In this document: piece after piece, positions 1,522-31,961 of the stretch
Numbering within the stretch: position 1 is the stretch's first letter
Layout of the letters: every line of letters starts with the position of its first letter
Assembly: GCF_002075285.3 (NCBI RefSeq)
Contig: NZ_CP021983.2
Coordinates: 2,070,001-2,102,000, forward strand
From: Halomicronema hongdechloris C2206
GTDB taxonomy: Bacteria > Cyanobacteriota > Cyanobacteriia > Phormidesmidales > Phormidesmidaceae
Length of the DNA: 32,000 nt
Direction: 5' to 3'
Notes under the pieces: generated by a model
The model's input: only the letters and a program-made list of their open reading frames with translations
The model's database searches: none
Told to the model about the DNA's origin: nothing
Translations under genes and position numbers: made by a program

Positions 1522-1544
1522 GGAGACACCTCCTCAAGAGCAGA

Positions 1545-2303: not shown

Positions 2304-2324
2304 AGGACGTATCAGGGTATGCGG

Positions 2325-2552: not shown

Positions 2553-2588
2553 GGGTCTTCCTCCAGAATAGGGTCGGCGCTGAGCCAG

Positions 2589-2942: not shown

Positions 2943-2973
2943 GGTTGACTTCCTGAAATAATCAACAGCTCAG

Positions 2974-12207: not shown

Positions 12208-12239
12208 GGATCACCCAAAGTGGCCAAGAGCCCGAAGTT
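12204..12239. repeat. ISL3-type terminal inverted repeat, right copy
   Basis: TTAAGGATCACCCAAAGTGGCCAAGAGCCCGAAGTT is the inverted partner of 9842-9878. Confidence 0.65.
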
Positions 12240-12261
12240 GGCGTGAATCAGGTGCCGAAGT

Positions 12262-12549
12262 TCATGCGATTTTGCAGGCCAAGCGCTCAGCTAGTTGGAC
12301 CAAAGTCGCATCGTTGTCCGCTTCGACTAACTCCCGTAACACCTCATGATGAGAGGCTTGAAGCGTGGGTTGAGGGCCCCCAGTATAGGGTTTGGGGGCA
12401 ATGCTGCCGGTGGCTTGATACTGTTTCACCAGGAGACGGACGCTATCTTGACTCACTTGAAAGCGCTTGGCTAATTGTCGAATCGACCCTTCGCCTCGCT
12501 CATACAGGGTGACGATGCGGCGACGTAAATCGGCAGAGTGGGGGCACAT
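12262..12549 (-). pseudogene. IS630-family transposase, N-terminal HTH fragment
   Basis: 'DLRRRIVTLYERGEGSIRQLAKRFQVSQDSVRLLVKQYQATGSIAPKPYTGGP' is the typical IS630/Tc1 paired HTH N-terminus. The ORF ends after 95 aa with no catalytic domain following. Confidence 0.75.
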
Positions 12550-12651
12550 AGGGACTACCAGAGCAGTACAAAAGAGCGTACTGCATAAGCTTGCACACCG
12601 CTATACCTTCATGCTCCAGGGACTTGAGCTAGAGATCCCGCCCAATAGCAG

Positions 12652-13448
12652 TTGAATTTCCAAAATGAGAATTGCTGGCTATTACAGGACCCGCCTGCGG
12701 ACGGCGATCTGTGGGATGGTCCGAAAGTAGCGCAGTGGATGAGCGGCGTGTTAGGACGCCCAATCCATCCTCAGCGTGGTTGGGAATATCTCAAAAGTCT
12801 GGAGATGCGTCGCCGTCGTCCTCGTCCCGCTCACATTGACAGTGACATCGAAGTGCAAACGGCGTGGAAAAAAAACTCCCAACTCTCCTCGCCGACTTGA
12901 AGGCAACGTATCCTGAGGCGACTTTTCGAGTTTGGGCAGAAGATGAACATCGCATTGGCTTGCACCCCGTCAATCGCATGGTGTGGGTGCCCCTCGGCGA
13001 GACACCCATCGCTCCCGTGAACTTCAAATATGAGTGGCTGTGGCTCATCGGCTTTGTCGAGCCGAGCAGTGGTGAAACCTATTGGTGGATTGTGCCCCGG
13101 TTAAATTGGCCGATTCTCGAACGGGTCCTGGCGGATTTTGCCCAGGCTTTTGAGGTCAGTGCCACTAATCGCATAGTGTTGGTGCTCGACCAAGCCAGTT
13201 TCCATACGACTCATAAGTTAACAGTTCCAGACGGGATGCACTTGCTGTTTCTACCCCCGCGCTCACCTGAACTCCAACCCGCAGAACGACTCTGGCCACT
13301 CACGAACGAGGCCATTGCCAACCGCAGCTTTGAGTCTTTAGATGAGTTGGAAGCCGTCACAGCTCATCGATGCCGGGTGCTCATGAACCGTCCTGAGTTT
13401 ATGCGTGGGATAACTGGATATCACTGGTGGCTTGAGGCGGTAGCATGA
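12652..13448 (+). mobile_element. IS630-family transposase orfA/orfB (N-terminally truncated) joined by a -1 frameshift site
   Basis: orfA (12652-12900) contains '...DGPKVAQWMSGVLGR..RGWEYLKSL...RPRPAH...AWKK'. orfB (12864-13448) contains 'KLPTLLADLKATYPEATFRVWAEDEHRIGL...LVLDQASFH...FLPPRSPELQPAERLW'. Together they are collinear with single-ORF IS630 transposases. The usual N-terminal HTH region of about 100 aa is missing. Confidence 0.75.
12870..12876 (+). promoter_or_regulatory. Candidate -1 programmed frameshift heptamer A AAA AAC inside an A8 run
   Basis: In the orfA frame the codons are TGG AAA AAA AAC. A -1 slip puts the next codon at 12876 (CTC), which is exactly the orfB frame, giving AWKK(N/K)LPTLL. 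Confidence 0.45.
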
Positions 13449-13550: not shown

Positions 13551-14525
13551 TCAGATTAAGCCAACTCTGAATAAAGCGTTACCCAACCAGGGAAATTCTA
13601 AGAGAAGTGGCAAAAGACGACCTTTAATAGGAGCAATATCTCTAAATGATTGAAATGCCAATTCAGAGTTACACTCATTTAGGATATTGGTATTTAATGA
13701 AATGCTATCTTCAAGGTTTTTGACCTGATGCCACCATCTTGGAGGAATATAGATCACTTCCCCTGGTTCTAATACCGCTTCTATGGGTTTGGCATGGGCA
13801 TAGAGTGGAAATTGATTGAGATTAGGACTGAAAGCATTCACTTCTCCGCCGTATAGGAAATCCCCTTGATCCGGTGAGAAAAATATGATTTTTTTGCGTC
13901 CAGAAGTCAATGCAACCCATGCTGGCAAATCGTATGAATCGATGTGGAGACCAATAGATGAATCTTTAGGGCCGATATACACGGTAGAGCGCTCCAGTCG
14001 ATATTTCTTTTGCAGTTCCATTGGTAAGCGTTCGAGCCAATTGGGAAAATAAACAGGCACATCATAATCTTGACGTAGCTCAGGAAAGGAAGAGAGCCGT
14101 AATTCTTCCAAATAAAGAGAGCGTTGACGATCGTGGCTAGCTAAGTAGTCGAGATAGTCTGCCAGTTTCATGGTGATGTCTTGATTCCGGCTTCTAATTC
14201 CCTCAGAACAATCTGTGACCGTCACATTGATCGAGCCATAGGTTGACCTAAAAAAATCCAACGTCCATTTTGTTAAGGCAGGCCAGTTTTTAATAACATC
14301 TGTGAGAATAACAGGCTTGCAAACAGAGGCGTAGTCTCTAATAAATTCTTCGTAAGAAAGTTGACTGCGGCGATCGATCAAAGCAACGGCTTCCCAGGAA
14401 ACCTTAAATTGTTTCTTTTGCCATACTCGTTTGAGAAAATAAGTGGCAAGCAATACGGTAATGCCTAAGATAGGTAAAGCAAGTCCTAACCAGAAAATAT
14501 TAAAATGAGAGAGCAGTAATTGCAT
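13551..14525 (-). CDS. Membrane-anchored JmjC/cupin_8-type Fe(II)/2-oxoglutarate oxygenase (putative tailoring hydroxylase)
   Basis: N-terminal TM helix 'IFWLGLALPILGITVLLATYFL'. HxD facial-triad motif 'GLHIDSYD', 'WVALTSGRKKIIFFSP', and the distal His in 'GEVIYIPPRWWHQVKNLEDSISLNTN'. It is the last gene of the minus-strand biosynthetic operon. Confidence 0.75.
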   Translation of the reverse strand: MQLLLSHFNIFWLGLALPILGITVLLATYFLKRVWQKKQFKVSWEAVALIDRRSQLSYEEFIRDYASVCKPVILTDVIKNWPALTKWTLDFFRSTYGSINVTVTDCSEGIRSRNQDITMKLADYLDYLASHDRQRSLYLEELRLSSFPELRQDYDVPVYFPNWLERLPMELQKKYRLERSTVYIGPKDSSIGLHIDSYDLPAWVALTSGRKKIIFFSPDQGDFLYGGEVNAFSPNLNQFPLYAHAKPIEAVLEPGEVIYIPPRWWHQVKNLEDSISLNTNILNECNSELAFQSFRDIAPIKGRLLPLLLEFPWLGNALFRVGLI

Positions 14526-17622: not shown

Positions 17623-20600
17623 TTATTCATGCAGATTGAGTAGGTCTAGCTGTTGGGATATAATTTCTAGCTGTTGAGTAATTAGTTGTTCTAAGCTATG
17701 TTTTTCTAATTTGGTTTCGGTGCCAGTTTCTTGGTTATTTATTTCTTCTGAATTGATAGATTGATTGGGTTCACCCCTAGACAACGACTCTGGTGGCTCT
17801 AATTCATTAGAAACTTCAAAAGCATTACCTGTTTTGTGGCTGCTATGCTTCAAGTCTAATGGAGCGGGATTGTTCTTTGATGGTGCAGATGGCGGTGGCA
17901 AATTGTTGGTTTTAGGAGACTCAATCCAATAGCGCTGGCGTTCAAATGGATAGGTGGGCAAATGGACACGATGGCGTTGTTCGTAGGCGTAAAATCCTGA
18001 CCAGTCGATCGGTACACCAGCAAGCCAAAGATTTCCCAGGGTGTTGAGCAAGAATGCCATATCAGACTGTTGCTGATGGGGATGGCGGAGTGAAGCCAGA
18101 ACTGACGGTGAAGGGGATGAATCTGCATCAGGCTGGACGGCTAACTGACTCAATGACCCTCCCGGACCCACTTCCAAAAGGATTCGCTCCGGTTCTTGCT
18201 GCAAGATTGCCATATTCTCAGCAAACCGCACAGGCTGGCACATATGCTTTGCCCAGTAAGCGGGAGCAGTCGCCTCGTCAGGTGTAATCCAAGTCCCTGT
18301 GACATTGGATAAGTAAGGGATTTTAGGCGGCTGGAGATTAAAGGTTTTTGTCAGCTCGATTAGGGGAGTGGCGATCGGTTCTAGCATTCTGGAATGAAAG
18401 GCATGAGAGGTTTGTAACCGGCAATAGGCGAAACCCTTTTCGGTTAAATGCTGAATTAATTCATCCACAGCGTCCGTAGAACCTGAAATAACACAGAGAG
18501 AGGGAGCTTGAATTGCCGCAAGGAATAGATTTTCCTTCAACAAAGGGGCTACTTCTGCCGCTGAAAGGGGAACAGCCAGCATCGCTCCCCCTGGCAATTC
18601 CTGAATCATCTGGGCTCTTTTTGTAACCAGGGTTAGGGCATCCTCTAGAGACATGACCCCAGCCAGGCAAGCGGCAACATATTCACCGATACTATAGCCC
18701 AGCATTACCTGAGGATAAATCCCCCACGACATCCACAATTGAGCTAATGCATATTCAATGATGAAGAGAATCGGTTGAGCCAGGAAGGTTTGATTTAATG
18801 TCTGGGTGGCGGTATCCGCCTGTCCTTCAGCACGAGCTAGCAGTTTACGGAAATCGAGGCGGGAATTAGGGGAATTGCGATCGATCTCCTCTTGCATATC
18901 AGGGTTGGTTCGGTCTTTGCCAGGATACAACACGTCGCGTAAATCCAGACCTAAAAGAGGCTGAAGAAAGTTGCAACACTGATCAACCTGGTTTCGAAAC
19001 GTGGATTCGCCCTGATACAGGTGCCAAGCCATGTTGACATAGTGGGTGCCTAATCCGGGAAACAGAAACGCGACGGGACGTCCTCCCCGGGGTTGATGGT
19101 AAGTTAGGACTCGTTTGGCATCTTGAAATGCAGTAATGGCATCGTTAACATCGCGGCAGACAACGGCTCGACGATGGCTAAATGCTCGACGACCGAGTTG
19201 CAACGTATAAGCGACATCCGCCAGGTTGAGGTCAGGATTTTGTTGGAGATAATCCACGAAATTGGCAGTTGCCGTCTCTAGGGCAGTGCTTGTTTTGGCG
19301 GATATCACCAGGAGTTGCCAGGGGCGAGAGTTTCCAGAAGGCGCTTGCGGCGGCGCTTCTTCTAAAACCACATGGGCATTGGTTCCTCCAAGCCCAAAGG
19401 CGCTTACCCCTGCCCGTCTGGGGATTCCGTTGGTTTCCCAATCGGTCAGTTTGGTATTGACATAGAAAGGAGTGTTGGTAAAGTCTATTTCTGGATTAGG
19501 GTGTTCAAAGTGCAATGTGGGGGGAATCTGTTGATGCTTAAGGGCCAGTAATGTTTTAATCAAACCAGCAACACCGGCGGCTCGATCAAGGTGACTAATA
19601 TTGGTTTTTACTGAACCGATCGCACATTGTGCCTGTTTGGTAAAGCCATCCCATCTTTCCTGATTCCTTCCGGCACAAAACACATTGTCCAGTGCCCTGA
19701 TTTCAATCGGATCTCCCAAAGCGGTTCCGGTTCCGTGGGTTTCGATATACGTGATTGTTTCGGGAGCAAAGCCAGCGATCGCCTGGGCATCGGCAATCAC
19801 TTCGGCTTGGCCGGTGACGCTGGATGCAGTAAAACTCACCTTCTCAAATCCATCGTTATTAATAGCTGAGCCCTTAATCACGGCATAAATTGAGTCACCA
19901 TCTCCTAAAGCCTCTTCTAGTCTTTTAAGTACCACAACTCCCACCCCACTGCCGAACGGACAACCTTCGGCTTTGGCATCAAATGCCCGACAGTGACCAT
20001 CTGAAGAAGCCATTCCACCCTCTTGATAGAAATAACCCTGCTTTTGTGGAACGGTGATTGAGACACCTCCAGCCAACGCCAGATCGCAGTCGTAGTTCAG
20101 TAATCCCCGACAAGCTAAGTGAATGGCAACAAGTGAGGTAGAACACGCGGTACTCACATTAACACTGGGTCCCTTCAAGTTAAGCTTGTAGGAAACCCGT
20201 GTGGCTAGGAAGTCTTGGATATTGCCAATGTTAATGGATAAAGACCCTACTGTTTGGATCGAGTCAGGATTGGGAATGAGATTGTTTAAGCAATAACTAC
20301 TTGAGGCGCTTCCGGCATAAACCCCAATTAATCCTGCCTTTGAAGACTCATAGCCTGCATTCTCCAGGGCAGACCAGGCAGATTCCAAGAAAAACCGGTG
20401 CTGCGGGTCAGTGATTTTAGCTTCCCGCGGTGTAAATCCAAAGAACGAAGCATCAAACCATTCAATGTCGTCCAGCGCAAATCCCGCCTTGACATAGTTG
20501 GGGTCGTGTAACCAAGTTGGATCTACCCCTGAAGCCAGTAGCTCCTCATCGGAAAAGAATGAAATAGACTCCACGCCATTGCATAAATTTTGCCAAAACT

Positions 20601-20688
20601 GTTCAACACTCCTGGCTCCCGGAAACCGACCGGCTATGCCAATGATGGCTATGCCCTCCAAGGACGGATCGCGCTTCATCTCATCCAT
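17623..20688 (-). CDS. Type I PKS, KS-AT didomain with no carrier domain, ending in a low-complexity tail and a coiled-coil-like helix
   Basis: KS motifs 'STACSTSLVAIH', 'ETHGTGTALGDPIE' and 'KTNISHLDRAAG'. AT motifs 'GYSIGEYVAACLAG' and 'SHAFHS' (malonyl-type HAFH). The post-AT linker is 'YPFERQRYWI'. It ends in '...LEQLITQQLEIISQQLDLLNLHE'. The start overlaps the upstream stop in ATGGATGA (20681-20688). Confidence 0.9.
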   Translation of the reverse strand: MDEMKRDPSLEGIAIIGIAGRFPGARSVEQFWQNLCNGVESISFFSDEELLASGVDPTWLHDPNYVKAGFALDDIEWFDASFFGFTPREAKITDPQHRFFLESAWSALENAGYESSKAGLIGVYAGSASSSYCLNNLIPNPDSIQTVGSLSINIGNIQDFLATRVSYKLNLKGPSVNVSTACSTSLVAIHLACRGLLNYDCDLALAGGVSITVPQKQGYFYQEGGMASSDGHCRAFDAKAEGCPFGSGVGVVVLKRLEEALGDGDSIYAVIKGSAINNDGFEKVSFTASSVTGQAEVIADAQAIAGFAPETITYIETHGTGTALGDPIEIRALDNVFCAGRNQERWDGFTKQAQCAIGSVKTNISHLDRAAGVAGLIKTLLALKHQQIPPTLHFEHPNPEIDFTNTPFYVNTKLTDWETNGIPRRAGVSAFGLGGTNAHVVLEEAPPQAPSGNSRPWQLLVISAKTSTALETATANFVDYLQQNPDLNLADVAYTLQLGRRAFSHRRAVVCRDVNDAITAFQDAKRVLTYHQPRGGRPVAFLFPGLGTHYVNMAWHLYQGESTFRNQVDQCCNFLQPLLGLDLRDVLYPGKDRTNPDMQEEIDRNSPNSRLDFRKLLARAEGQADTATQTLNQTFLAQPILFIIEYALAQLWMSWGIYPQVMLGYSIGEYVAACLAGVMSLEDALTLVTKRAQMIQELPGGAMLAVPLSAAEVAPLLKENLFLAAIQAPSLCVISGSTDAVDELIQHLTEKGFAYCRLQTSHAFHSRMLEPIATPLIELTKTFNLQPPKIPYLSNVTGTWITPDEATAPAYWAKHMCQPVRFAENMAILQQEPERILLEVGPGGSLSQLAVQPDADSSPSPSVLASLRHPHQQQSDMAFLLNTLGNLWLAGVPIDWSGFYAYEQRHRVHLPTYPFERQRYWIESPKTNNLPPPSAPSKNNPAPLDLKHSSHKTGNAFEVSNELEPPESLSRGEPNQSINSEEINNQETGTETKLEKHSLEQLITQQLEIISQQLDLLNLHE

Positions 20689-23600
20689 TCGGTTTTCTCC
20701 TCTGCTTCATCCGTTGTTGATTGTTTTGGATCGCAACTTGTTTCTGCTTTGCACGATCCTGAGCATGTTGGAATACAGGTCTTTTAGCAATTTCTTGGCT
20801 CAGGTGCTCTGCCAATGCGCTAATGGTTGGATACTCAAATAAGTCAGCGATCGGAAAGTCCTGATGGAGCCGATCTCGCATTTTGCTGCGGACTTGAACG
20901 GTTAAAAGCGAGTCTCCTCCCAGGTCTAAAAAGTTATCGTAGATGCCTACGAGTTCAACACCTAGTAACTCTTGCCAGATTTCAGCCAACGTTTGTTCTA
21001 GCTCATTGCGAGGCGCAACATAAGGGTTGTTCAACTCTGGTCGTGGATGCGTTGGCTTAGATAGATTAACCTTCTCTAGAGTCTCCAGAAAGTTAGAATC
21101 TTCTCCGGCATTTTCTTGTTCAATCTGAGTTAGAAAATCGCAAGTTGATACCACAACCTGAGGAATTGTTCTTCCTAAAAGGCGATCGAATACTTCGGCC
21201 CCCTCCTGGGGTAAAATTTTCTGCTGAAGTGTTTCGGCTCGCCATGCTTGCAGGTTAAAGGGCACTGTCGTGTCTACTGCCATCCCTACCTCTTGCCAAG
21301 CATCCCAGTTAATCGAAAAGACTGAGCGATGGGAAGAAGATAAGAAGTGATGATGGGCAAAAACATCTAAGAACGCATTGGCTGCACAATAGTCTACCTG
21401 TCCAAACCCGCCTTGGATGGAGGTAAGAGAAGAACAAAGCACTAAGAAATCGAGTGGAATATCCTTGAACACAGCTTCAAGAATCCGCGTTCCTTTAACT
21501 TTAGGAGCCAGAATTCTTTCTACCTCATCAGGTGTTTTTCGTTGAATCACACCTCCACCAGGAACACCAGCCGCATGGATCACGCCATTGATCTGCCCAA
21601 ACTGAGCGCAGGACTGATCCACAACGGCTTGCATCTGTTCAAACTGAGTGACATCCGCACTAATGATTTGCACTTCAGAGCCCAGTGCTTCTAGTTCTAG
21701 TATGATTTGAATCTTGCAGCTAATCTTGTCTTGTTCGTCATGAGTGGTCAACCAGTGTTGCCACGCTTCCCGTGGAGGAAATGCCGAACGTCCAATCAGA
21801 ATCAGTTTGGCTTGAACGGTTTTTGCCAGATGTTGAGCCAGTGTTAATCCAATGCCACCCAGTCCACCCGTAATCAGATAAACTCCACCAGGTTTTAACC
21901 GTACTGTCCTTGCTGGGGGGCGATCGAATCGCACGGGTTCAAACGCTTGCACCCAGCGCTGACGCCCCCGATAGGCAATCACTAGATCGGGTGATGGCGT
22001 TGTCAATTCTGCTAGAAGTTGTTCTGCCAAGTTTTCGACTTGCCAATGTTCTGGAATAGGAAACTCAACATCAATACTGCGGCAATGAAGATTTGGATAT
22101 TCTCGGGAAATCACTCGAACAGGTCCAAGGACAGTCGCCTTTTCTGGGCAGAGCGGTTCACCCCCTGTAACCGATTGCATCTGATTTGAAATCACCGTGA
22201 TTTGAACGTCATCGGTAATCGCCTGTTTTCCTAACGCCTGAGCTAGAAAAAGCAGGCTGTAAAACCCTAAATCCTGTAGTTTGTTAACTTGTTCAAAGCC
22301 TAAATTTGGAAAATTGTGCGAGGTAACAGTCCATGAATGAATGATCTTTGTTGGAAATTGATTGTGCTTTAAAAGGGCTTTGAATAAGACATGATAGTCT
22401 TCCTGTTGTTGAGGATTGAGGCTGTATTCTTTTTCGTTCCACTGGGTAAAGTGCGACCCAATGCTTACGGTGATAATCTCGTGGTTTTGCTGTTGCAAAT
22501 TCGTTACAATCTGGGAACCTAAACCGCATTCATCCAAGAATACAAGAATACAGGATGATTGATGTAACTCATCTTGGTCCAATAAAACTGGAGGTAAAGC
22601 GGGTTTCCAGAAAGGAAGGTAAAACCAGTCTGCGATGTCCAGTTTTCTACTCTTTGATTTTTCTTTGAATGGCGCGGCAACACGCTGTGGCTGCTTTTGT
22701 AAATCAATCCAATACCGCTGGCGTTCAAAGGGATACGTAGGTAACGGGAGTCTATGGCGACGCTCATGAGCATAAAAAACAGCCCAGTCTACTTTGACGC
22801 CCATCAACCATAAACGACCGAGTGTTGTGAGCAAAACCGCAATATCTGACTTTTGCTCTTTGAGGTGACGAACCGAGGTAAGTGTCACCAATTCATCGGG
22901 TTGATGTTGCTTAGCAAAGGTACTGAGGGTGCGTCCTGGACCAACCTCTAATAATATTTGCTTGGGCTTGGTGAGAACTTCGCGAATTCCAGCACTAAAG
23001 CACACGGGTTGTCTGAGTTGCTGTGTCCAATAATGAGGATCGATCGCCTCGCTTGGTGTCATCCAAGTGCCGCTGAGATTGGATATAAACGGAATGGTAG
23101 GCGGATTCAGTTTCACGCCTTGGAGAGCTTGAGTAAAAGGTTGCAGAATCGGTTCCATCATTTCAGAGTGGAAGGCATGAGAGGTATGTAAACGGCGGCA
23201 ACTTATGTTCTGTTCTTGCAATTTTTGTTGCAACTGCTCCACAGCCTCAGTCGGACCTGAAACCACACAAGAAGATGGTGCATTACTTCCAGCTAGGGAA
23301 AGGGCTGCTCCTAACAATGGTTGTATTTGTTGCTCAGAACATTGAACAGCTAGCATCGCACCGAGGGGACACTGCTGCATCAGTCGTCCGCGTGTGGCAA
23401 CTAGCGCTAAGGCGTCTTCCAGGGAGAAAACACCAGCCAGACAAGCCGCGACATATTCGCCGATGCTGTGACCGATCATGGCGGTGGGATTCACGCCCCA
23501 AGACATCCACAATTTGGCAAAGGCATACTCAATGACAAATAAGGCAGGCTGGGCGTAGATAGTGTCGTTGAGGGAGAATTCAAAGTTCGGAGCTTGCAAC

Positions 23601-25411
23601 TCAACGTTAGATTGGTCTCCTGATTCCTGATTCCTGACTCCTGGCTCCTCATCTGGATAGAGAACTTGTCGTAGATCTAAACCGAGATGAGGTTTAAGCA
23701 ATTCGCAACAGCGATCGACTTGCTCAGTAAATGCCAGCTCGGTATGGTAGAGTTCCCGCGCCATATTGACATACTGGGTTCCCTGTCCCGGAAACATGAA
23801 CACAAGGGAACGATGACCGAGTTCTTGATAATGAGACAAAACTTGTTGAGAATCAGGCGAGCTTAGGGCTTGTGTGGCGTCATTTGAGTTTTGACAAATT
23901 ACCATGCGGCGATGCTCAAATCCTCGGCGCCCCACTTGCAGGGTATAGGCTACATCGGCAAGGTTACAATCAGGATGGTGCTGAAGGTAATTTACTAAGT
24001 TAACTGTAGCAGTGTCTAAAGCGGTACTGGTTTTGGCAGAGAGGAATAATAACTGCCAGGGACGAGAAGAGTCAGAAACTTCGATGGGAGGCGCTTCTTC
24101 CAGAATTACATGGGCATTAGTGCCACCAATTCCAAACGAACTAACACCAGCGCGACGAGGGGTACCGTTTGTTTTCCATTCAGCAAGTTGGGTATTGACG
24201 TAGAAAGGACTGGTGGCGAAATCAATTTTAGGATTGGGTTTCTCAAAGTGTAGGCTAGGCGGAATTTGCTTGTGTTCAAGGGCAAGAACGGTTTTGATCA
24301 GACCCGCCACTCCTGCTGCTGCATCCAAATGTCCAATATTGGTTTTAACAGAACCGATCGCACAGAATTGCTTCTGTTGCGTTTTTACCCGAAAGGCTTG
24401 GGTCAGAGCAGCGATTTCAATTGGATCGCCAAGAGAGGTTCCCGTCCCGTGAGCTTCGACATAGGTGATGGTATCCGGCTCAACTTCTGCGATCGCTTGA
24501 GCTTTCCGAATAACCTTTGCCTGACTATCGATACGAGGGGCTGTATAGCTGACCTTGAAAGAACCGTCGTTGTTGGTGGCTGAGCCTTTGATTACAGCGT
24601 GGATTGTGTCTCCATCAGCAAGGGCGTTTTTTAGTCGCTTCAACACGACAATTCCTACACCACTGCCTCTTACCGTTCCTTGGGCTTTGGCATCAAAGGC
24701 ACGACAATGACCATCTGGAGAATTAATGCTACCTTCTTGATACAAGTAACCAGAGGATTCTGAAATGGAAACGCCTCCTGCCAATGCCAGATGGCATTCA
24801 CCACCAAGCAAGCTACGACAAGCCATATGAACGGCAACTAGTGAGGTGGAGCAGGCGGTTTGAATATCGACACTTGTGCCCTCCAGGTTCAGCTTATAGG
24901 ACACACGGGTCGTGAGAAAATCTTTGTCGTTGGAGATCACCAGTTGATAGGGATCGACAGAGGCTGCAAAGCTGCCTGCTGCATAACGCTTGAGCATGTA
25001 GCCGTTCAATCCTGTACCTGCATAAACTCCGATCGCTCCTCGATAGGTTTCAGCGTCATAGCCAGCCTGTTCAAGGGCTTCCCAGGCACACTCTAGAAAC
25101 AGTCGATGTTGTGGGTCTGTAATTTCTGCTTCTTTAGCACTGAAGCCGAAAAACGAGGCATCAAATAATTCGATGTTCTCTAAAACGCCTGCTGCTCTGA
25201 CATATTGAGGATGATCTAGCAACGCTGATTCAACTCCCAGAGCAATTAGTTCTTTATCATTAAAGAACGAAATTGATTCCACTCCATTTTTTTGGTTTTC
25301 CCAAAATTTTTCAATGGTATTTGCCTTGGGAAAGCGCCCACTCATGCCAATAATGGCTATTTCTAAGCCATTTGTCTGATTTTTCGTCACTAATGGGTTG
25401 ATTCTACTCAT
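20681..25411 (-). CDS. Type I PKS module KS-AT-KR-ACP
   Basis: KS motifs 'QTACSTSLVAVH', 'EAHGTGTSLGDPIE' and 'KTNIGHLDAAAG'. AT motifs 'GHSIGEYVAACLAG' and 'SHAFHS' (malonyl-type). KR motifs 'YLITGGLGGIGL' and '...VDYCAANAFLD', with no LDD motif seen. ACP motif 'LDLGGDSLLTVQV'. Confidence 0.9.
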   Translation of the reverse strand: MSRINPLVTKNQTNGLEIAIIGMSGRFPKANTIEKFWENQKNGVESISFFNDKELIALGVESALLDHPQYVRAAGVLENIELFDASFFGFSAKEAEITDPQHRLFLECAWEALEQAGYDAETYRGAIGVYAGTGLNGYMLKRYAAGSFAASVDPYQLVISNDKDFLTTRVSYKLNLEGTSVDIQTACSTSLVAVHMACRSLLGGECHLALAGGVSISESSGYLYQEGSINSPDGHCRAFDAKAQGTVRGSGVGIVVLKRLKNALADGDTIHAVIKGSATNNDGSFKVSYTAPRIDSQAKVIRKAQAIAEVEPDTITYVEAHGTGTSLGDPIEIAALTQAFRVKTQQKQFCAIGSVKTNIGHLDAAAGVAGLIKTVLALEHKQIPPSLHFEKPNPKIDFATSPFYVNTQLAEWKTNGTPRRAGVSSFGIGGTNAHVILEEAPPIEVSDSSRPWQLLFLSAKTSTALDTATVNLVNYLQHHPDCNLADVAYTLQVGRRGFEHRRMVICQNSNDATQALSSPDSQQVLSHYQELGHRSLVFMFPGQGTQYVNMARELYHTELAFTEQVDRCCELLKPHLGLDLRQVLYPDEEPGVRNQESGDQSNVELQAPNFEFSLNDTIYAQPALFVIEYAFAKLWMSWGVNPTAMIGHSIGEYVAACLAGVFSLEDALALVATRGRLMQQCPLGAMLAVQCSEQQIQPLLGAALSLAGSNAPSSCVVSGPTEAVEQLQQKLQEQNISCRRLHTSHAFHSEMMEPILQPFTQALQGVKLNPPTIPFISNLSGTWMTPSEAIDPHYWTQQLRQPVCFSAGIREVLTKPKQILLEVGPGRTLSTFAKQHQPDELVTLTSVRHLKEQKSDIAVLLTTLGRLWLMGVKVDWAVFYAHERRHRLPLPTYPFERQRYWIDLQKQPQRVAAPFKEKSKSRKLDIADWFYLPFWKPALPPVLLDQDELHQSSCILVFLDECGLGSQIVTNLQQQNHEIITVSIGSHFTQWNEKEYSLNPQQQEDYHVLFKALLKHNQFPTKIIHSWTVTSHNFPNLGFEQVNKLQDLGFYSLLFLAQALGKQAITDDVQITVISNQMQSVTGGEPLCPEKATVLGPVRVISREYPNLHCRSIDVEFPIPEHWQVENLAEQLLAELTTPSPDLVIAYRGRQRWVQAFEPVRFDRPPARTVRLKPGGVYLITGGLGGIGLTLAQHLAKTVQAKLILIGRSAFPPREAWQHWLTTHDEQDKISCKIQIILELEALGSEVQIISADVTQFEQMQAVVDQSCAQFGQINGVIHAAGVPGGGVIQRKTPDEVERILAPKVKGTRILEAVFKDIPLDFLVLCSSLTSIQGGFGQVDYCAANAFLDVFAHHHFLSSSHRSVFSINWDAWQEVGMAVDTTVPFNLQAWRAETLQQKILPQEGAEVFDRLLGRTIPQVVVSTCDFLTQIEQENAGEDSNFLETLEKVNLSKPTHPRPELNNPYVAPRNELEQTLAEIWQELLGVELVGIYDNFLDLGGDSLLTVQVRSKMRDRLHQDFPIADLFEYPTISALAEHLSQEIAKRPVFQHAQDRAKQKQVAIQNNQQRMKQRRKPNG

Positions 25412-25434: not shown

Positions 25435-28400
25435 TTATTCTTCTCTTTTTAATAGTTGATTAAGCAAATCTTTTTCCATGTTTATCTCCTTATCAATTTC
25501 TTTCATGGATTCGGAAGATGTCTCATCTTTTGTCTTGCTAAAATAATCTGCCAAGGAACTGATGGTTGGTAGCTTAAACATTTCTATTAACGAAATCTCC
25601 GATGAGAATAATTCACTAAGCTGACTATGGACCTGAACCATTAGTAAGGAATGACCACCAAGATCAAAGAAGTTATCGTGAATACCGATTTTTTCGACAT
25701 TAAGAACCTTTCGCCAAATCGCAGCTATAGCCTGTTCAGTCTCGGTTCTTGGTATGACATAGGCAACTTTTAATTCTGGTCTGCCAGTCTCTGGCATAGG
25801 CAGGGATCGCCGATCGACCTTGCCATTAGGGGTCAATGGCAGCGCTTCGAGTTCCATAATGGTTGCAGGCACCATGTACTCGGGCAGCTTGCCTCGCAGG
25901 AAGCGACGCAACTCTGTGGTTGACAGCGCCGCTTCTGGACGGGGTACCGCATAGCCCACCAGCTGCTGGTCTCCGTGGTCACTGGTGCGAGCAATGATTA
26001 CCGTTTGTGATACGGTCGGGTGCTGGGAGAGCACACTCTCAATCTCACCGATTTCAATGCGGAAGCCGCGTATCTTCACTTGGTGGTCGATTCGCCCCAG
26101 ATACTCGAGAATGCCATCTGCTCGATATCTGACCAGGTCCCCGGTCTTGTATAGCCTTGTCCCGGGCTCCACACTGAAGGGATTGGGGATAAAGCACTCG
26201 GCTGTCAACTCCGGCCGCTGGTAATAGCCTCGGGCTAGCTGAACACCACCAATGTGCAATTCACCTGGCACCCCAATGGGAGTGGGTTGTCCGGCTTTGT
26301 CCAATACATACACCTGAGTGTTGGCAATGGGACGGCCAATCGGGACACTATTTTCAACCTGATGAGGATCACAGGCCCAAGCCGTCACATCAATTGCAGC
26401 CTCAGTAGGACCATACAGGTTGTGCAAATTAGCCTCAAGACGTTTAAAGTAGTGCTGATGAAGCTTCAGTGGAAGCGCTTCGCCACTACAAATGACATGC
26501 CTCAGGCTTTTACAGTATGACTCTAGCTGCAGCTCTTCTAGAAAGACTTGCAGCATAGATGGCACAAAGTGCAGGACACTTACCTGTTCTTGAGCAATGA
26601 ACTTAGCCAAGTAATGACTATCTTGATGCCCACCGGGTTGAGCAACCGCTAAGGATGCCCCTGTCATCAGAGGCCAGAAAAACTCCCATACTGAGACATC
26701 AAAACTAAAGGGGGTCTTTTGTAGGACTCGGTCAGCTTGCGTCAGCTGATAGGTCTCTTGCATCCACTGCAAACGATTGCACACCCCTTGGTGAGTATTC
26801 ATCGCTCCTTTTGGCTGTCCCGTCGAGCCAGAGGTGTAGATAACGTAACTGAGATGAGAGCTTGCAGTAGGTCTCGAGGGATTGGTGGCATCTGATGTCG
26901 CTATTGCTGCCCAGTTAGCCTCCAAGCATAAGCATAGGGTGTGAGTCCCATTAGGCAAGACATCTACGAGAGCCATGTGGGTAAGCACAAGGGGTACTTG
27001 AGCATCCTGCACCATGAAGGCTAGACGCTCATGGGGATAGGTTGGATCCAGAGGCACATAAGCGCCCCCCGCTTTCAGCACCCCTAACAGCGCAATCACC
27101 ATCGCTACTGAGCGTTCGAGACAGACCCCCACCAAGGTTTCAGGTCCCACCCCCTGGCCCTGCAGGTAATGGGCCAGTTGATTGGCGCGACGATTCAACT
27201 CGTCATAGGTCAGGTGCTGCTGCTCAAACACCAGCGCCACTGCCTCCGGGGTACGCTCCACTTGCGCTTCAAATAACTCATGGAGACAAGCCTCTGGATA
27301 CTCAGCCTCCGTCTGATTCCACTCCACCAGAAGACGCTGCCGCTCAGCAGAGGTCAACAGGGGTAGGTCACTAACCCGCTGCTCCGGCTGCCTCACCACC
27401 GCCGTTAACACCTGCTGCAGATGCGTGATGAGACGTGCCATGGTCGCCGCGGCAAATAAGTCGGTGTTGTACTCTAGCTGCCCTTGCAACCCCGCCTCAC
27501 CCTCTTGCAGCGATAGAGTCAGGTCAAATTTGGCGCTTTCTGGAGCACTCTCGAGTACCTCCACCGCTACCCCTGGCAAGGCCAACGATTCCTGGGGCGC
27601 ATTCTGCAGGATAAACATCACCTGAAACAGGGGGGAATGACTCAATGCCCGCTCCGGCTGCAGCAGTTCCACCACCTGCTCAAAGGGCATATCCTGATGG
27701 GCATAGGCCCCTAAGGTCACCTCCCGTACCCGCTGCAATACCTCCACAAAGGAGGGCTGCCCCGCCAAGGATGTGCGCAACACTAAGGTATTGACGAAAA
27801 AGCCAATCAACCCTTCCACTTCCCTACGGGTGCGGTTGGCAATGGGAGAGCCCACCACGATGTCCGCTTGGCCGCTGTAGCGACTCAACACCACTTGAAA
27901 GGCAGCCAGCAGTGTCATAAACAGGGTGCAGTTCTGCTGCCGACTCAACTGCTTCAATCCCTGGGTTAACTCTGGGGTAATTCCAAAGGCTTGAGTCGCT
28001 CCCCGGAAGGTCTGCACCGCCGGACGAGGATGGTCCGTGGGTAACTCAAGCACTTCCGGGGCACCTGCTAACTGCTGCTGCCAGTACTGCCGCTGTTGCT
28101 CTAGCACCTCACCGTGGAGCCACTGCCGCTGCCAAGCCGCATAGTCTAGATACTGAACCGGTAGGGGGGATAAGGAAGGGGCATGACCTGTGACAATAGC
28201 CCCATAGAGCTGAGCCACTTCTCTGACTAAAATGCCCATTGACCAGCCATCGGAGACGATGTGGTGCATGGCAAACACCAGCACCTGCTCCTGCTGGGAA
28301 CATTGCAGCAGGACGACGCGAAGCAAGGGGGGCTGGTCGAGGGAAAAAGGCTGATGGGTGATGCTCCCAGTCAGCTGTTGGACCCCTTGCTCCTGCCCTT

Positions 28401-29376
28401 GGGCTGTTAGGTCTTGCAGGTCGATGACCGCCAGGGGCACCTCTACAGTGGGATGGAGATCTACGGCAGGATGGCCCTCTTGGCTGACAAACCCGAGGCG
28501 CAGGGCCTCATGACGCTGCAGGAGAATCTGGAGACTGGCCTGGAGGGCGTCAATGTCAAGGGAACCGTGTAGTCGCAGGGCACTCGACAGGTGATAGAAG
28601 GGACTTTCTGGTTCGAGTTGGGCCAAAAACCACAGCCGTTGTTGGGCAAAGGAGAGGGGTAAGGGGCCGCTGCGCTCGATAGTGGTTATGGGAGGACTGG
28701 TGAGGCCCTGTTCCTCATGGAGGGCAGCTTCAATGACAGGCGCTAACTCAGCAATGGTGGGATGCTCAAAGAGGCGACGCAGGGGCACCTCTACGGCAAA
28801 GGCGTGACGCACGTGCGACATCACCCGGGTTGCCAGCAGGGAATGGCCGCCTAACTCAAAGAAGTTGCTCTGGATGCTGACGGTCTCTAGCTTCAGCACG
28901 TCTGCCCAAATGCTCACGAGCATCGCTTCGATGGGGGTGCGAGCTGCAACCGTTGCTGAAGTGTCTAGGTGCTGATACTCGGGGGCTGGTAGGGCTTTGC
29001 GGTCGACTTTGCCATTGGGGGTGAGGGGCAATTCCTTCAGCAGAACCATGGCTGCAGGCACCATGTAGTCGGGAAGCTGCTCTTGCAGGTAACGCCGTAA
29101 CGCTGAGGGGGAGAGACTGGCAGTGGCAGGGACGACATAGCCCACTAACTGTGGCTCGCCTGAGGCATTCTGGTGAGCGACCACCACGGCTTGTGAGACA
29201 GATGAATGGCGCAGCAGCACCGTTTCAATTTCACCTAGTTCAATGCGGAAGCCCCGCAGCTTCACTTGATGGTCGAGGCGACCCAGGTATTCCAGGCTGC
29301 CATCGCGGCAATACTTGACTAAGTCCCCAGTCTTGTACAGACGGGCCCCAGGTGTGGGGCTAAAGGGATTGGGCAC
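25435..29376 (-). CDS. NRPS, distal part of a frameshift-split gene: (A7-A10 of module 1)-T-C-A(Ser-like)-T
   Basis: It begins mid-A-domain: 'PNPFSPTPGARLYKTGDLV' (A7), 'GRLDHQVKLRGFRIELGEIE' (A8) and 'NGKVDR' (A10). Next come T 'FFELGGHSLL' and LCL-type C ('LSFAQQRLWFL', 'MHHIVSDGWS'). A full A domain follows (A3 'YVIYTSGSTGQPKG', 'FDVSVWEFF', 'NLYGPTEAAIDVT'), then T 'FFDLGGHSLL'. The track's start codon is a GTG artefact. Confidence 0.9.
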   Translation of the reverse strand: MPNPFSPTPGARLYKTGDLVKYCRDGSLEYLGRLDHQVKLRGFRIELGEIETVLLRHSSVSQAVVVAHQNASGEPQLVGYVVPATASLSPSALRRYLQEQLPDYMVPAAMVLLKELPLTPNGKVDRKALPAPEYQHLDTSATVAARTPIEAMLVSIWADVLKLETVSIQSNFFELGGHSLLATRVMSHVRHAFAVEVPLRRLFEHPTIAELAPVIEAALHEEQGLTSPPITTIERSGPLPLSFAQQRLWFLAQLEPESPFYHLSSALRLHGSLDIDALQASLQILLQRHEALRLGFVSQEGHPAVDLHPTVEVPLAVIDLQDLTAQGQEQGVQQLTGSITHQPFSLDQPPLLRVVLLQCSQQEQVLVFAMHHIVSDGWSMGILVREVAQLYGAIVTGHAPSLSPLPVQYLDYAAWQRQWLHGEVLEQQRQYWQQQLAGAPEVLELPTDHPRPAVQTFRGATQAFGITPELTQGLKQLSRQQNCTLFMTLLAAFQVVLSRYSGQADIVVGSPIANRTRREVEGLIGFFVNTLVLRTSLAGQPSFVEVLQRVREVTLGAYAHQDMPFEQVVELLQPERALSHSPLFQVMFILQNAPQESLALPGVAVEVLESAPESAKFDLTLSLQEGEAGLQGQLEYNTDLFAAATMARLITHLQQVLTAVVRQPEQRVSDLPLLTSAERQRLLVEWNQTEAEYPEACLHELFEAQVERTPEAVALVFEQQHLTYDELNRRANQLAHYLQGQGVGPETLVGVCLERSVAMVIALLGVLKAGGAYVPLDPTYPHERLAFMVQDAQVPLVLTHMALVDVLPNGTHTLCLCLEANWAAIATSDATNPSRPTASSHLSYVIYTSGSTGQPKGAMNTHQGVCNRLQWMQETYQLTQADRVLQKTPFSFDVSVWEFFWPLMTGASLAVAQPGGHQDSHYLAKFIAQEQVSVLHFVPSMLQVFLEELQLESYCKSLRHVICSGEALPLKLHQHYFKRLEANLHNLYGPTEAAIDVTAWACDPHQVENSVPIGRPIANTQVYVLDKAGQPTPIGVPGELHIGGVQLARGYYQRPELTAECFIPNPFSVEPGTRLYKTGDLVRYRADGILEYLGRIDHQVKIRGFRIEIGEIESVLSQHPTVSQTVIIARTSDHGDQQLVGYAVPRPEAALSTTELRRFLRGKLPEYMVPATIMELEALPLTPNGKVDRRSLPMPETGRPELKVAYVIPRTETEQAIAAIWRKVLNVEKIGIHDNFFDLGGHSLLMVQVHSQLSELFSSEISLIEMFKLPTISSLADYFSKTKDETSSESMKEIDKEINMEKDLLNQLLKREE
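26218..26337. repeat. ~120-nt direct repeat, copy 1 (A5/A6 region of the module-2 A domain)
   Basis: Hand alignment with 29403-29522 shows about 13 mismatches in 120 nt. Both copies encode 'PIANTQ.YVLDKAGQPTPIGVPGELHIGG..LARGYYQRPELTAE'. Confidence 0.8.
27044..27320. repeat. 277-nt direct repeat, copy 1 (C-A linker to A2 motif of the module-2 A domain)
   Basis: Hand alignment with 30205-30481 has no gaps and about 20 mismatches (roughly 93% identity). Both copies encode 'WNQTEAEY..ACLHELFEAQVER.PEAVALVFEQQHLTYDELNRRANQLAHYLQGQGVGPETLVGVCLERSVAMVIALLGVLKAGGAYVPLDP'. Confidence 0.85.
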
Positions 29377-31961
29377 AAGCGTTCTGCTGTTAACTCGGGG
29401 CGCTGGTAATAGCCTCGGGCTAGCCCCATGCCACCAATGTGCAGTTCACCTGGCACCCCAATGGGAGTGGGTTGTCCGGCTTTATCCAGCACATATAGCT
29501 GAGTGTTGGCAATGGGCTGGCCTAAGGGCACTGTCTCACACTCAGCCCTCAGTTCACTCACCGCAGACCAAATCGTCGTCTCGGTCGGTCCATACAGGTT
29601 CCAGACCCCTGCACTGCGAGCGTACAACTGATGGGCTAACTCCAATGGCAAGGCGTCCCCGCCACAGAACACTAGCAATGCAGATGACCCGGACCACTCC
29701 GTTGACATCAGCATCTGCCAGGTGGCTGGAGTCGCTTGCAGCACTGTCGCGTCAAATTGCTCTAGTCGCCGAGCCAAATGATGAGCATCACAGGCGACCT
29801 CTCGACTCACCACCTCCAATCGAGCTCCTTGAAGGAGTGGCAGGTATAACTCCAAGGCTGCAATGTCAAAAGCGACGGTTGTGACTGAGACCAGTCGGTC
29901 CTCAGCCCTGAGCCCTGGATACTCAGCCATGCTATATAGGAAGTTGCTCAACGCCTGATGGGGAATCTGGACGCCTTTGGGGGCTCCGGTGGACCCTGAG
30001 GTGTAGATCACATAGCTGAGCTGCTCGAGTGCGGTAACTGGAGCAGGAGGATAGCTGGGGCTCTCAGCAATGCAGTCCCAATCGGTGTCTAGGCACAGAG
30101 GGGAAACTGAGGTGGGTAGCACGCCAACGTGAGCTGCTTGCGTTAGCAAACAACGGGCCTGTGCGTCTTCTAGGATATAGGCCAGTCGCTCTTGAGGGTG
30201 GCTCGGATCCAGAGGCACATACGCACCCCCCGCTTTCAGCACCCCTAGCAGTGCAATCACCATCGCCACCGAGCGCTCTAGACATACCCCTACTAAGGTT
30301 TCAGGTCCCACGCCTTGGCCCTGCAGGTAATGGGCCAATTGATTGGCCCGACGATTCAACTCGTCATAGGTCAGGTGCTGCTGCTCAAACACTAGCGCCA
30401 CTGCCTCCGGGCTGCGCTCCACTTGCGCTTCAAATAACTCATGGAGGCAAGCCTCTGAATACTCAGCCTCCGTCTGATTCCAGTCAACTAAAATATGCCG
30501 TTGTTCTTGTTCGCTAAAGAGGGAAAGCTCTGATATAGGTAATTTATAGTCAGTAACAACAGACGCTAATAAATTTTGGAAATGTGAAGTTAGGTCAGCA
30601 ATAGTAATTTCATTAAATAAATCTAGACTGTACTCTACTTGTCCTCGAATTGCTTGATCGACTTCAGACAAATTAAAACGTAATTCAAATTTTGTTGTTT
30701 CGCTTTCTATTGGAAAAGTCTCTAAGTTCAAGCCAGACAGCCTTAGTTCATCTACAGAAGCAAGCTGAAAATCAAACTTGACTTGAAATAGTGGATTGAC
30801 TCGACTGAGATCTCGTTCGGGCTTTAAATACTCAACTAATCTTTCAAAAGGCAGATCTTGATGAGCATAAGCTTCTAGTGTTACTTCACGAACTTTTTGT
30901 ACTACCTCTTGAAAGGTAAAACTGCTGTTCAGCTTTGTTCGTAGCACTAATGTATTTACTAAGAGGCCAATTAATCCCTCAGTTTCGATCTGGTTTCGAT
31001 TAGCAATATCAGTGCCTATAACAATGTCTTCTTGATTGGAATATTTATAAAGTAAGATCTTAAATGTTGTCAATAGTAAGACAAACAAGCTTATCCCTTC
31101 TTGGGCACTCAGTTGCTTCAACGCTGCAGTAAGCGGTCTTGACAATGTAATAGGATATCGACCTCCACGAAATGTTGGTGTAGTTGGTCGAGACTTATCC
31201 GTCGGAAGTTCTAGCATCGACATATCAGCAAGCTGCTGGTGCCAATAGCTCAGCTGTTTTTCTAATCTCTCTCTCTGTAGCCATTGCCGTTGCCAGAGTG
31301 CCCAATCCGCATATTGAATTGGCAAATCAAGCAGGGGAGACGGTTCACCTTTTGAAAACGCTTCATAGAGGGCCTTAAATTCTCGTGTTAGGATGCCCAA
31401 AGACCAGCGATCAGCAATAATATGATGAAGTGTTAGTAGCAACACATGATCTGTCTCACCTAGACGCAGAAGAGCAAGCCTCGAGGATGATTGAGAAAGA
31501 TCAAAAGGCAGCTGTGAAATTTGTCTAACTAAATCTTGAGATTCTGAAGTTAGCTGAGGTACTTGAGTCAGATCAAAAACAGGCAATCTCACAGAAGTTG
31601 ACTCAATAACCTGCATGGGGTTTCCTTCATCGTCGCTTATAAAGCGAGTTCGCAAGGTTTCATGGCGCCTGAATAGCTCATGAAAAACTCGATACAGTAT
31701 TGCTATTTTAAGCTCACCCCGAAGACGTAGTGCTAAAGGAATATTGTAGGCTGTGTTCGATGGATCGAGTTGCTGAATGAACCATAATCTTTGTTGAGCA
31801 AAGGATAAAGGTGGATTATCTGAGCCTTCTCGCTTAGGAATTATCTGAGACTCGGAATACTGCAATTGCTTTTGCTTTAGCCGAAGCTCAAGCAACTTCC
31901 TTTGCTTGGGTGATAGGGTGGCAATTTGTTGAGAAAGATCTTCTGACATGACTAGATCCAA
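29319..31961 (-). CDS. NRPS, proximal part of a frameshift-split gene: N-terminal docking region - C - A(Gly-like, A1-A6 only)
   Basis: LCL-type C ('LSFAQQRLWFIQQL', 'LHHIIADRWS'). A-domain motifs 'LTYDELNRRANQLA', 'LKAGGAYVPLDP', 'YVIYTSGSTGAPKG', 'FDIAALELY', 'NLYGPTETTIW' and 'GELHIGGMGLARGYY'. The reading then runs out of frame ('ERLCPIPLAPHLGPVCTRLGT*'). The start is TTG 31961 or, more plausibly, ATG 31949 ('MSEDLSQQ'). Confidence 0.9.
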   Translation of the reverse strand: MDLVMSEDLSQQIATLSPKQRKLLELRLKQKQLQYSESQIIPKREGSDNPPLSFAQQRLWFIQQLDPSNTAYNIPLALRLRGELKIAILYRVFHELFRRHETLRTRFISDDEGNPMQVIESTSVRLPVFDLTQVPQLTSESQDLVRQISQLPFDLSQSSSRLALLRLGETDHVLLLTLHHIIADRWSLGILTREFKALYEAFSKGEPSPLLDLPIQYADWALWQRQWLQRERLEKQLSYWHQQLADMSMLELPTDKSRPTTPTFRGGRYPITLSRPLTAALKQLSAQEGISLFVLLLTTFKILLYKYSNQEDIVIGTDIANRNQIETEGLIGLLVNTLVLRTKLNSSFTFQEVVQKVREVTLEAYAHQDLPFERLVEYLKPERDLSRVNPLFQVKFDFQLASVDELRLSGLNLETFPIESETTKFELRFNLSEVDQAIRGQVEYSLDLFNEITIADLTSHFQNLLASVVTDYKLPISELSLFSEQEQRHILVDWNQTEAEYSEACLHELFEAQVERSPEAVALVFEQQHLTYDELNRRANQLAHYLQGQGVGPETLVGVCLERSVAMVIALLGVLKAGGAYVPLDPSHPQERLAYILEDAQARCLLTQAAHVGVLPTSVSPLCLDTDWDCIAESPSYPPAPVTALEQLSYVIYTSGSTGAPKGVQIPHQALSNFLYSMAEYPGLRAEDRLVSVTTVAFDIAALELYLPLLQGARLEVVSREVACDAHHLARRLEQFDATVLQATPATWQMLMSTEWSGSSALLVFCGGDALPLELAHQLYARSAGVWNLYGPTETTIWSAVSELRAECETVPLGQPIANTQLYVLDKAGQPTPIGVPGELHIGGMGLARGYYQRPELTAERLCPIPLAPHLGPVCTRLGT
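29403..29522. repeat. ~120-nt direct repeat, copy 2 (A5/A6 region of the module-1 A domain)
   Basis: See 26218-26337. Confidence 0.8.
30205..30481. repeat. 277-nt direct repeat, copy 2 (C-A linker to A2 motif of the module-1 A domain)
   Basis: See 27044-27320. Confidence 0.85.

Follow-up and report, generated by a model that had tools for sequence, protein, structure and literature searches.

Domain organization of gene W

The window analysed here, a stretch of 32,000 nucleotides from the cyanobacterium Halomicronema hongdechloris C2206 (contig NZ_CP021983.2, positions 2,070,001 to 2,102,000), carries a hybrid nonribosomal peptide synthetase (NRPS)-polyketide synthase (PKS) cluster. One of its genes, hereafter gene W (25435..31949), encodes a bimodular NRPS of ~2170 residues with condensation (C), adenylation (A) and carrier (T) domains in the order C1-A1(Gly)-T1-C2-A2(Ser)-T2, as delineated from open reading frames (ORFs), reading frames, Pfam matches and accessions. 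Coordinates are those of the window, and all features of the gene lie on the minus strand. Because a frameshift splits the reading frame, the gene is annotated as two coding sequences (CDS), ASC71032 (29319-31949) and ASC71031 (25435-29376). Matches to the Pfam families Condensation, AMP-binding and PP-binding place a C-A fragment in the first and the rest of the A domain, followed by T-C-A-T, in the second. Both A domains match PF00501 (E=1e-89 and 5e-95) and PF13193, and the alignment contains the motifs LTYDEL, LKAGGAYVPLD, YTSGSTG, FD, NLYGPTE, GELHIGG, YKTGD, GRxDxQVKxRG, LPxYMVP and NGKVDR.

The gene begins with an N-terminal docking-like tail and the C1 domain, both of low GC (30483..31949; Pfam, composition and protein search). 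A1 opens with an N-flank (30207..30482), which change-point segmentation and alignment identify as copy 1 of a 276-nt repeat. It continues with a core bearing a Gly-like code (29517..30206), which was defined by pocket reading and by alignment to the paralogous protein ASC71036 described below. The next segment, around the end of motif A5 and motif A6 (29388..29516), is copy 1 of a 129-nt patch at 89% identity, delimited by segmentation and codon sharing. It is followed by the site of a 1-nt deletion between motifs A6 and A7 (29376..29384; frame analysis and paralog comparison). The T1 carrier domain (28672..28962) and the C2 condensation domain (27322..28671) were placed by Pfam and alignment. 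In A2, copy 2 of the repeat forms an N-flank contiguous with C2 (27046..27321; segmentation and alignment to ASC71036). The remainder of A2 comprises a core with a Ser code (26332..27045; pocket reading and informative sites), copy 2 of the post-A5/A6 patch (26203..26331; segmentation and codon sharing) and a C-terminal part spanning motifs A7-A10 (25774..26202; segmentation and informative sites). The T2 carrier domain and a C-terminal docking-like tail, again of low GC, complete the gene (25435..25773; Pfam and composition).

Pocket residues were read by alignment to GrsA-PheA, whose own code, DAWTIAAICK, was correctly returned as a check. A1 carries DILQFGLI(W)K, predicted to be Gly-like, and A2 carries DVWHISLIDK, predicted to specify Ser. 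An earlier note on this DNA had likewise assigned Gly-like and Ser-like codes to the two domains; the ten-residue codes indeed differ, and both assignments are predictions. The canonical codes are DILQLGLIWK for Gly and DVWHLSLIDK for Ser.

Sharp identity steps between the two A domains

Modules 1 and 2 of gene W were compared by codon alignment, sliding windows and Bernoulli change-point segmentation, for which the Bayesian information criterion gave an optimum of six segments. The C1 and C2 domains are 50.7% identical at the nucleotide level. Identity then rises to 92.8% in the N-flanks (30482-30207 and 27321-27046), falls to 50.0% in the cores (30206-29517 and 27045-26332), which is a saturation level, and rises again to 89.1% in the patches (29516-29388 and 26331-26203). 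The C-terminal parts (A7-A10) are 66% identical, and the T1 and T2 domains 43%. These values bear out the description in the earlier note of unrelated cores between near-identical flanks. For its intervals 27044-27320 and 30205-30481, given as about 93% identical, recomputation yielded 92.8% over 277 ungapped nt; for 26218-26337 and 29403-29522, given as about 89%, it yielded 89.2% over 120 nt. The content of the two segments also agrees: the first runs from the C-A linker via 'LTYDEL' to 'LKAGGAYVPLDP', and the second from the region after A5 via A6 'GELHIGG..ARGYY'.

Codon usage separates ancestry from constraint. The two halves of the N-flank encode 0.90 and 0.70 of their identical residues by the same codon, and the patch 0.80; the corresponding fractions are 0.34-0.38 in the C domain, core and T domain and 0.49 in the A7-A10 part. 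Codon sharing so far above background indicates that the likeness of the flanks reflects shared ancestry rather than motif conservation. The pairwise alignment and breakpoint analysis show steps in identity that are sharp; together with the codon sharing, the segmentation rules out both uniform divergence across the A domains and pure motif conservation.

On its left side the N-flank homology begins abruptly, with the W codon of 'WNQTEAEY': the copies differ at 16 of the 30 nt before this point and at 5 of the 134 nt after it. In total the N-flank copies differ at 20/276 nt, and 18 of these differences are synonymous. The mismatches are unevenly distributed (5 in the first 134 nt and 15 in the last 144 nt; Fisher p=0.037). 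The longest exact runs in the N-flank measure 44, 32 and 24 nt; those in the patch measure 39 and 24 nt.

A block common to gene W and ASC71036

A protein search with the second ORF identified ASC71036, a second bimodular NRPS of H. hongdechloris C2206 (2177 aa) that is Gly-Gly, both of its A domains being Gly-type by pocket code. By accession order, it lies four CDS upstream of gene W in the same cluster (JmjC 71027, AMT-TE 71028, KS-AT 71029, PKS 71030, the two CDS of gene W 71031 and 71032, ASC71036 71036). After repair of the frameshift, residues ~507-1636 of gene W (nt ~30410 to 27045) are identical at every position to residues ~513-1642 of ASC71036, a run of ~1130 consecutive residues in which the frameshift codon is the only exception. 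This 3.4-kb block (27045..30410; protein alignment and composition) contains most of the A1 N-flank, the Gly core, the C-terminal part of A1, T1, C2 and the entire A2 N-flank. Outside it, the two proteins are 30-55% identical in amino acid sequence. The relationship is thus a contiguous identical tract with sharp edges and divergent sequence on both sides, as in an A-T-C-A exchange or gene conversion, at the protein level.

Within the block, the A1 core is 100% identical to the corresponding core of ASC71036 (A1'), and the A2 N-flank is 100% identical to the N-flank of its second A domain (A2'). The A2 N-flank is thus no isolated flank but forms the 3' end of an A-T-C-A block. Directly behind 'AYVPLDP' this block stops; from there on, the DNA of the Gly-type and Ser-type cores can no longer be aligned. 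The relevant partner of this sequence is accordingly ASC71036, and not the sister A domain of the same gene on which the earlier note had concentrated. The recency of the block rests on 0 amino acid changes in ~1130 codons in a protein-level comparison, which suggests that it may be very recent or still undergoing homogenisation.

ASC71036 displays an internal conversion tract of its own. Its A domains are 100% identical to each other over 256 residues, including poorly conserved stretches; beyond this tract they differ at 1-7% of residues, at scattered sites. At the DNA level these two domains are very probably near-identical.

In gene W, A1 as sequenced does not have the intact frame of a functional A domain. 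A 1-nt frameshift at ~29376-29384, which the earlier reader had missed, leaves overlapping open frames at 29321-29448. The gene reads GAACGCTT^GTGCCC, one base short of both paralogous copies, with TT where the paralogs have TTT; these copies encode ERFVPNPF and ECFIPNPF. Insertion of one base restores an unbroken C1-A1-T1-C2-A2-T2 protein, and the matching stretch of ASC71036 is intact. Because of this frameshift in the upstream A domain, the spacing of the A-domain repeat is 3161 nt instead of 3162. It is either an inactivating mutation in a freshly copied block or an error of the 454/PacBio type.

Probable resident and incoming segments

The two N-flanks of gene W appear to differ in origin. 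The A1 N-flank is 97.8% identical in amino acid sequence to that of A2' and 90.4% identical to that of A1', and it contains two residues (S, S) that are absent from every other copy. These two unique residues indicate that the A1 N-flank is probably the resident copy. If the A domains of ASC71036 are indeed near-identical in DNA, then the N-flanks of gene W, which are 7% apart, would not both be fresh copies. The simplest reading is that the A1 N-flank is resident, at least in part, and that the A2 N-flank arrived with the block.

The ancestry of A2 was examined at sites that discriminate between A2' of ASC71036 and the best relative outside this genome, the first A domain of the metagenomic protein P0003, which carries the code DVWHLSLIDK. 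Expressed as ASC71036-like to P0003-like sites, the N-flank is entirely ASC71036-like (28:0) and the core mostly P0003-like (15:82); the patch leans weakly towards ASC71036 (8:3), and the C-terminal part does not (13:24). The Ser core has this P0003 domain as its nearest relative (68% aa), and the C-terminal part is ~64% identical to ASC71036 and 72% identical to the P0003 domain. A wider patch of 47 residues (26197-26337) is 94% identical to A2'. Judged from these site counts, the sequence argues, short of proof, for a Ser-type A2 in which Gly-type paralogs supplied replacements for the two segments of highest conservation. Since the Ser core and the A7-A10 part share their nearest relative at a similar distance, conversion of the flanks is favoured over a clean swap of the core.

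The P0003 locus was rejected as an ortholog of this cluster, as it belongs to a different one whose genes include FAAL, a decarboxylase and a luciferase-like gene. Protein searches that used the second ORF, C1 and A2 (N-flank, core and patch) returned nothing closer than 56-68% besides the two H. hongdechloris proteins. For C1 no close relative was found in the protein search (≤56% aa); the C1 and A2 searches listed short proteins only, with the self-match absent, which makes this a weak negative. In scans of metagenome DNA, a peptide pattern from the Gly core had 0 matches, and a pattern from the N-flank found 27 loci, none above ~72% nucleotide identity. Protein searches and two metagenome DNA scans revealed no strain variants or deletion variants.

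Base composition of gene W and the window

The H. hongdechloris genome has 54.6% GC (PMC6416890). C1 has a GC content of 0.40 and a GC content at third codon positions (GC3) of 0.31, and T2 with its tail has 0.36 and 0.35, respectively. The interior of the block is host-like (GC 0.57-0.59, GC3 0.54-0.67). Host-like GC3 extends from the WNQTE codon (30482) to A10 (~25800), with the Ser core inside this span at 0.48. From the GC3 steps at 30482 and ~25800 it follows that the unit from A1 to A2 is a host-like insert between low-GC C1 and T2. This unit probably represents an earlier round of A-domain replacement whose limits coincide with the C-A and A-T linkers. GC3 is 0.38-0.46 in the downstream PKS, aminotransferase-thioesterase (AMT-TE), JmjC and transport genes and 0.63-0.69 in the phosphopantetheinyl transferase (PPTase) and type II thioesterase (TEII) genes; the largely low-GC cluster was probably acquired horizontally.

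The window as a whole is a GC mosaic. Host-like values (56-62%) occur at 1-3000, around insertion sequence elements (10549-13448) and in the A1-to-A2 unit (25774-30482), and low values (40-49%) in the genes for a TonB receptor, a periplasmic binding protein, a major facilitator superfamily (MFS) transporter, JmjC, AMT-TE and the PKSs as well as in C1 and T2.

GC3 was rejected as a decisive marker of a foreign piece within A2, as swings of ~0.1-0.2 between segments also occur within an unrelated NRPS gene. In that gene, which encodes the metagenomic bimodular protein P0003 (locus L079, 10001-16594), GC3 is 0.39 in the terminal C domain, 0.42 in the T domain and 0.59-0.62 in the A cores. A profile with low GC3 in the terminal C and T domains may be common in NRPS genes, which would weaken arguments on origin that are based on GC. 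The first C and last T domains of ASC71036 (C1' and T2') also look lower in GC than its interior, as in gene W, according to a GARP/FYMINK amino acid proxy whose values are intermediate and suggestive only.

Origin of the mosaic

The most plausible account, which we regard as probable, is that gene W is a mosaic generated by homologous recombination or gene conversion among the A-domain modules of one cluster. The latest layer would be the ~3.4-kb block in common with ASC71036, running from inside the A1 N-flank to the end of the A2 N-flank just past 'LKAGGAYVPLDP'. It would be nested in the older unit of host-like GC that is bounded by WNxTE of the C-A linker and by the A10/A-T linker. The Ser core of A2, and probably also the C-terminal part, would be the remnant of a different, Ser-type A domain, whose conserved N-flank and ~130-nt stretch around A6 were overwritten from Gly-type paralogs. 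The two 93% flanks would then be one resident copy and one copy brought in by the block. Overwriting would be confined to the A1-A2 and A5-A6 regions because only there is identity sufficient for strand exchange, and cores of different type would for this reason persist as islands. All of these layers would be accounted for if A domains within the one cluster underwent homology-dependent recombination or gene conversion. The analysis shows the mosaic itself, its breakpoints, the protein identity to the paralog and the steps in composition; the direction of transfer, the number of events and the addition or replacement of a module are inferences.

The earlier note had proposed either a swap of the specificity core or gene conversion of the flanks. 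Its general class of event, recombination or conversion with breakpoints at known sites of A-domain exchange, is retained here; a clean core swap does not fit the C-terminal part (13:24).

Several points weigh against this account. The identity of the block to ASC71036 was established on proteins, which reveal neither the transfer direction nor the precise position of the junctions. The patch taken by itself is non-significant at the protein level (p=0.23). The lower GC3 of the Ser core relative to the C-terminal part of A2 (0.48 and 0.62) would suggest that the core is the incoming piece. The searches uncovered no orthologous cluster in the pre-recombination state, and for C1, the Ser core and the block they returned no orthologs exceeding 70% aa. 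Finally, the hybrid assembly described below may contain a homogenised consensus in the 3.4-kb repeat or a homopolymer error at the frameshift.

A second, tentative possibility concerns whether a module was added or replaced. A single-module C-A(Ser)-T synthetase in a horizontally acquired, low-GC, siderophore-like cluster may have gained exactly one A-T-C period (3162 nt). Break repair would have been templated on the neighbouring Gly-Gly synthetase, with the N-flank (WNxTE to 'AYVPLDP') providing homology on both sides. The product would be a new Gly-Ser bimodule, and the two 93% repeats its scar. The repeat period equals exactly one A-T-C unit. Such a structure is what break repair with the sister gene as template would produce. 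Alternatively, the 3.4-kb block may have taken the place of an earlier first module.

Rather doubtful is the substitution of the core alone, in which a Gly-type A2 took up a ~700-nt Ser core (27045-26332) and changed from Gly to Ser incorporation. Motif A2 immediately precedes one breakpoint and A6 immediately follows the other, and the interval between them holds all pocket residues except K517, which matches the exchange unit described for natural swaps of the adenylation core (Acore) (PMC8097286). Both A domains of ASC71036 are Gly-type, so that a Gly-Gly arrangement could be ancestral, and the core has a GC3 of 0.48 compared with 0.55-0.62 in both flanks. However, an Acore swap (sensu Baunach 2021, Crüsemann 2013, Kries 2015) leaves both edges of the A domain, including the C-terminal Asub part, in one lineage and only the core in another, whereas the C-terminal part of A2 beyond the 130-nt patch is not Gly-type and would require a further event. 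The common nearest relative of core and C-terminal part also speaks against such a substitution, and GC3 swings of equal size are found inside the unrelated NRPS gene.

An assembly artefact is improbable. It would imply that the block or its identity stems from repeat collapse, consensus homogenisation or a chimeric join, and that the real gene may be a single C-A(Ser)-T module or contain a more diverged block. The 2019 hybrid assembly was put together by hand from 454 reads, Solexa mate pairs of 36 bp and PacBio RS data at 14x, and chimeric reads were reported for it (PMC6416890). Hand-joined contigs, early PacBio reads with many chimeras and a frameshift in a short T run, a typical 454/PacBio error, lend this possibility some substance, and no independent assembly of the locus was found. 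However, it needs two false joins, at 30482 and 27045, each in phase within a 276-nt homologous segment and with the ORF continuous bar one base; such a double in-phase chimeric join at the ends of the block is unlikely. The N-flank copies differ at 20 sites and are thus not collapsed, and at minimum the frameshift base separates the copy in gene W from that in ASC71036, which means that the assembler kept two copies. The genome authors also reported confirmation of joins by PCR and Sanger sequencing (PMC6416890).

Descent without recombination, in which old tandem duplicates retained similar flanks by purifying selection on A1-A2 and A5-A6 together with codon bias, is hardly credible: the flanks are the most conserved parts of A domains (72-83% aa among unrelated NRPSs), but same-codon use there exceeds the 0.34 of other conserved parts and the 0.49 of A7-A10, the edges are abrupt and accompanied by composition steps, and the identity to the paralog is perfect over 1130 residues.

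The proposal in the earlier note that the long repeats could serve as substrates for deletion is mechanically plausible, although no deletion variants were seen. The repeats are direct and in phase, and their exact runs of 44, 32 and 24 nt can be set beside the minimal processing segment of ~20-30 bp. A crossover between the N-flanks of gene W would yield an in-frame C1-A(Ser)-T2 product from which the frameshift is removed (spacing 3161 = 3162-1).

Relation to known NRPS recombination

Acore-centred recombination and rare A-T-C-A exchanges have been documented in cyanobacterial NRPS genes (Baunach et al. 2021, PMC8097286), and replacement of the A domain in mcyB1/mcyC is a case treated by Fewer et al. 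(2007, PMC2174460). Gene W resembles natural cyanobacterial NRPS recombination in several respects. Its breakpoints sit at conserved motifs within the A domain, common edges enclose a differing core, the donor is another module from the same or a related cluster, two genes carry the same A-T-C-A block, and the cluster is a hybrid NRPS-PKS system. In the natural events surveyed by Baunach et al. (PMC8097286), the C-A linker and the Asub-T interface tend to be kept native. In contrast, these two interfaces of gene W are not from one parent, and composition steps lie exactly at WNxTE and A10. Gene W differs from documented cases in that its block is identical at the protein level.

The concerted evolution of megasynthase modules offers a further parallel, with near-identical tracts, shared synonymous sites, saturated divergence around them, and donor and recipient a few genes apart. 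Unlike in that process, conversion halted at the specificity core of gene W, and two substrates were retained.

Engineered exchange units (XU: A-T-C) were reportedly fused at WNATE of the C-A linker by Bozhüyük and colleagues in 2018. The WNATE motif of the C-A linker is described as the fusion point for such units in a review (PMC11546977). The repeat period of gene W, 3161 (+1) nt, likewise corresponds to exactly one A-T-C unit delimited by WNxTE motifs, and the W of 'WNQTE', the equivalent of WNATE, marks both the start of homology on the left side and the rise from low to high GC. Unlike an engineered fusion, the event in gene W is natural, and the edge of the paralog block lies further in, after motif A2, and not at a second WNATE.

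The locus is a clear, well-resolved but ordinary case of documented NRPS reshuffling. Natural breakpoints show where NRPS modules tolerate cutting and rejoining, a central problem in NRPS engineering, and gene W offers three junctions resolved to the base, one at the WNxTE linker motif, one directly behind motif A2 and one around A6. The locus adds an A-T-C-A block common to two genes of one cluster and possibly a module gain. If a module was indeed gained, it would be a natural counterpart of exchange-unit insertion, with junctions known to the base and reversible via recombination between the repeats.

The surrounding cluster

The relevant genes of the cluster are all encoded on the minus strand in the window. 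Directly downstream of gene W, Pfam identifies a KS-AT-KR-ACP gene (20681-25411) and a KS-AT gene without a carrier domain of its own (17623-20688). These are followed by a gene for a 974-aa protein with an ACP, a class III aminotransferase and a thioesterase (TE) domain (14616-17540) and a JmjC/cupin hydroxylase-like gene (13551-14525). The assembly line thus terminates in an unusual three-domain ACP-aminotransferase-TE protein, which the JmjC/cupin gene adjoins. The KS-AT regions of the two PKS genes (18374-20037 and 23148-24751) contain direct repeats that are 73-82% identical, up to 278 nt long and spaced ~4.7 kb apart; they represent ordinary paralog similarity, with no near-identical tracts.

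Elsewhere in the window are genes for a PPTase, a type II thioesterase, an MbtH protein, a TonB-dependent receptor, a periplasmic binding protein and an MFS transporter, together with three transposase ORFs. Because of the MbtH, PPTase, TEII, receptor, binding protein and transporter genes, the NRPS-PKS cluster looks siderophore-like.

Two Logan contigs (loci L082 and L083; runs ERR14224704 and SRR6256322) are 86-87% identical in nucleotides to positions 3-3350 of the window, which comprise the PPTase/TEII/MbtH/small-ORF region. This similarity stops at ~3350, exactly at the GC drop where the low-GC island begins. A related organism thus has the accessory genes in common; the Logan contigs do not show the low-GC part in common.

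The three transposase ORFs belong to three families, DDE_Tnp_1 (10549-11256), ISL3 (11299-12207) and DDE_3 (12864-13448), and lie between the transport and the biosynthetic genes. An antisense ORF (10627-11289) overlaps the DDE_Tnp_1 transposase ORF.

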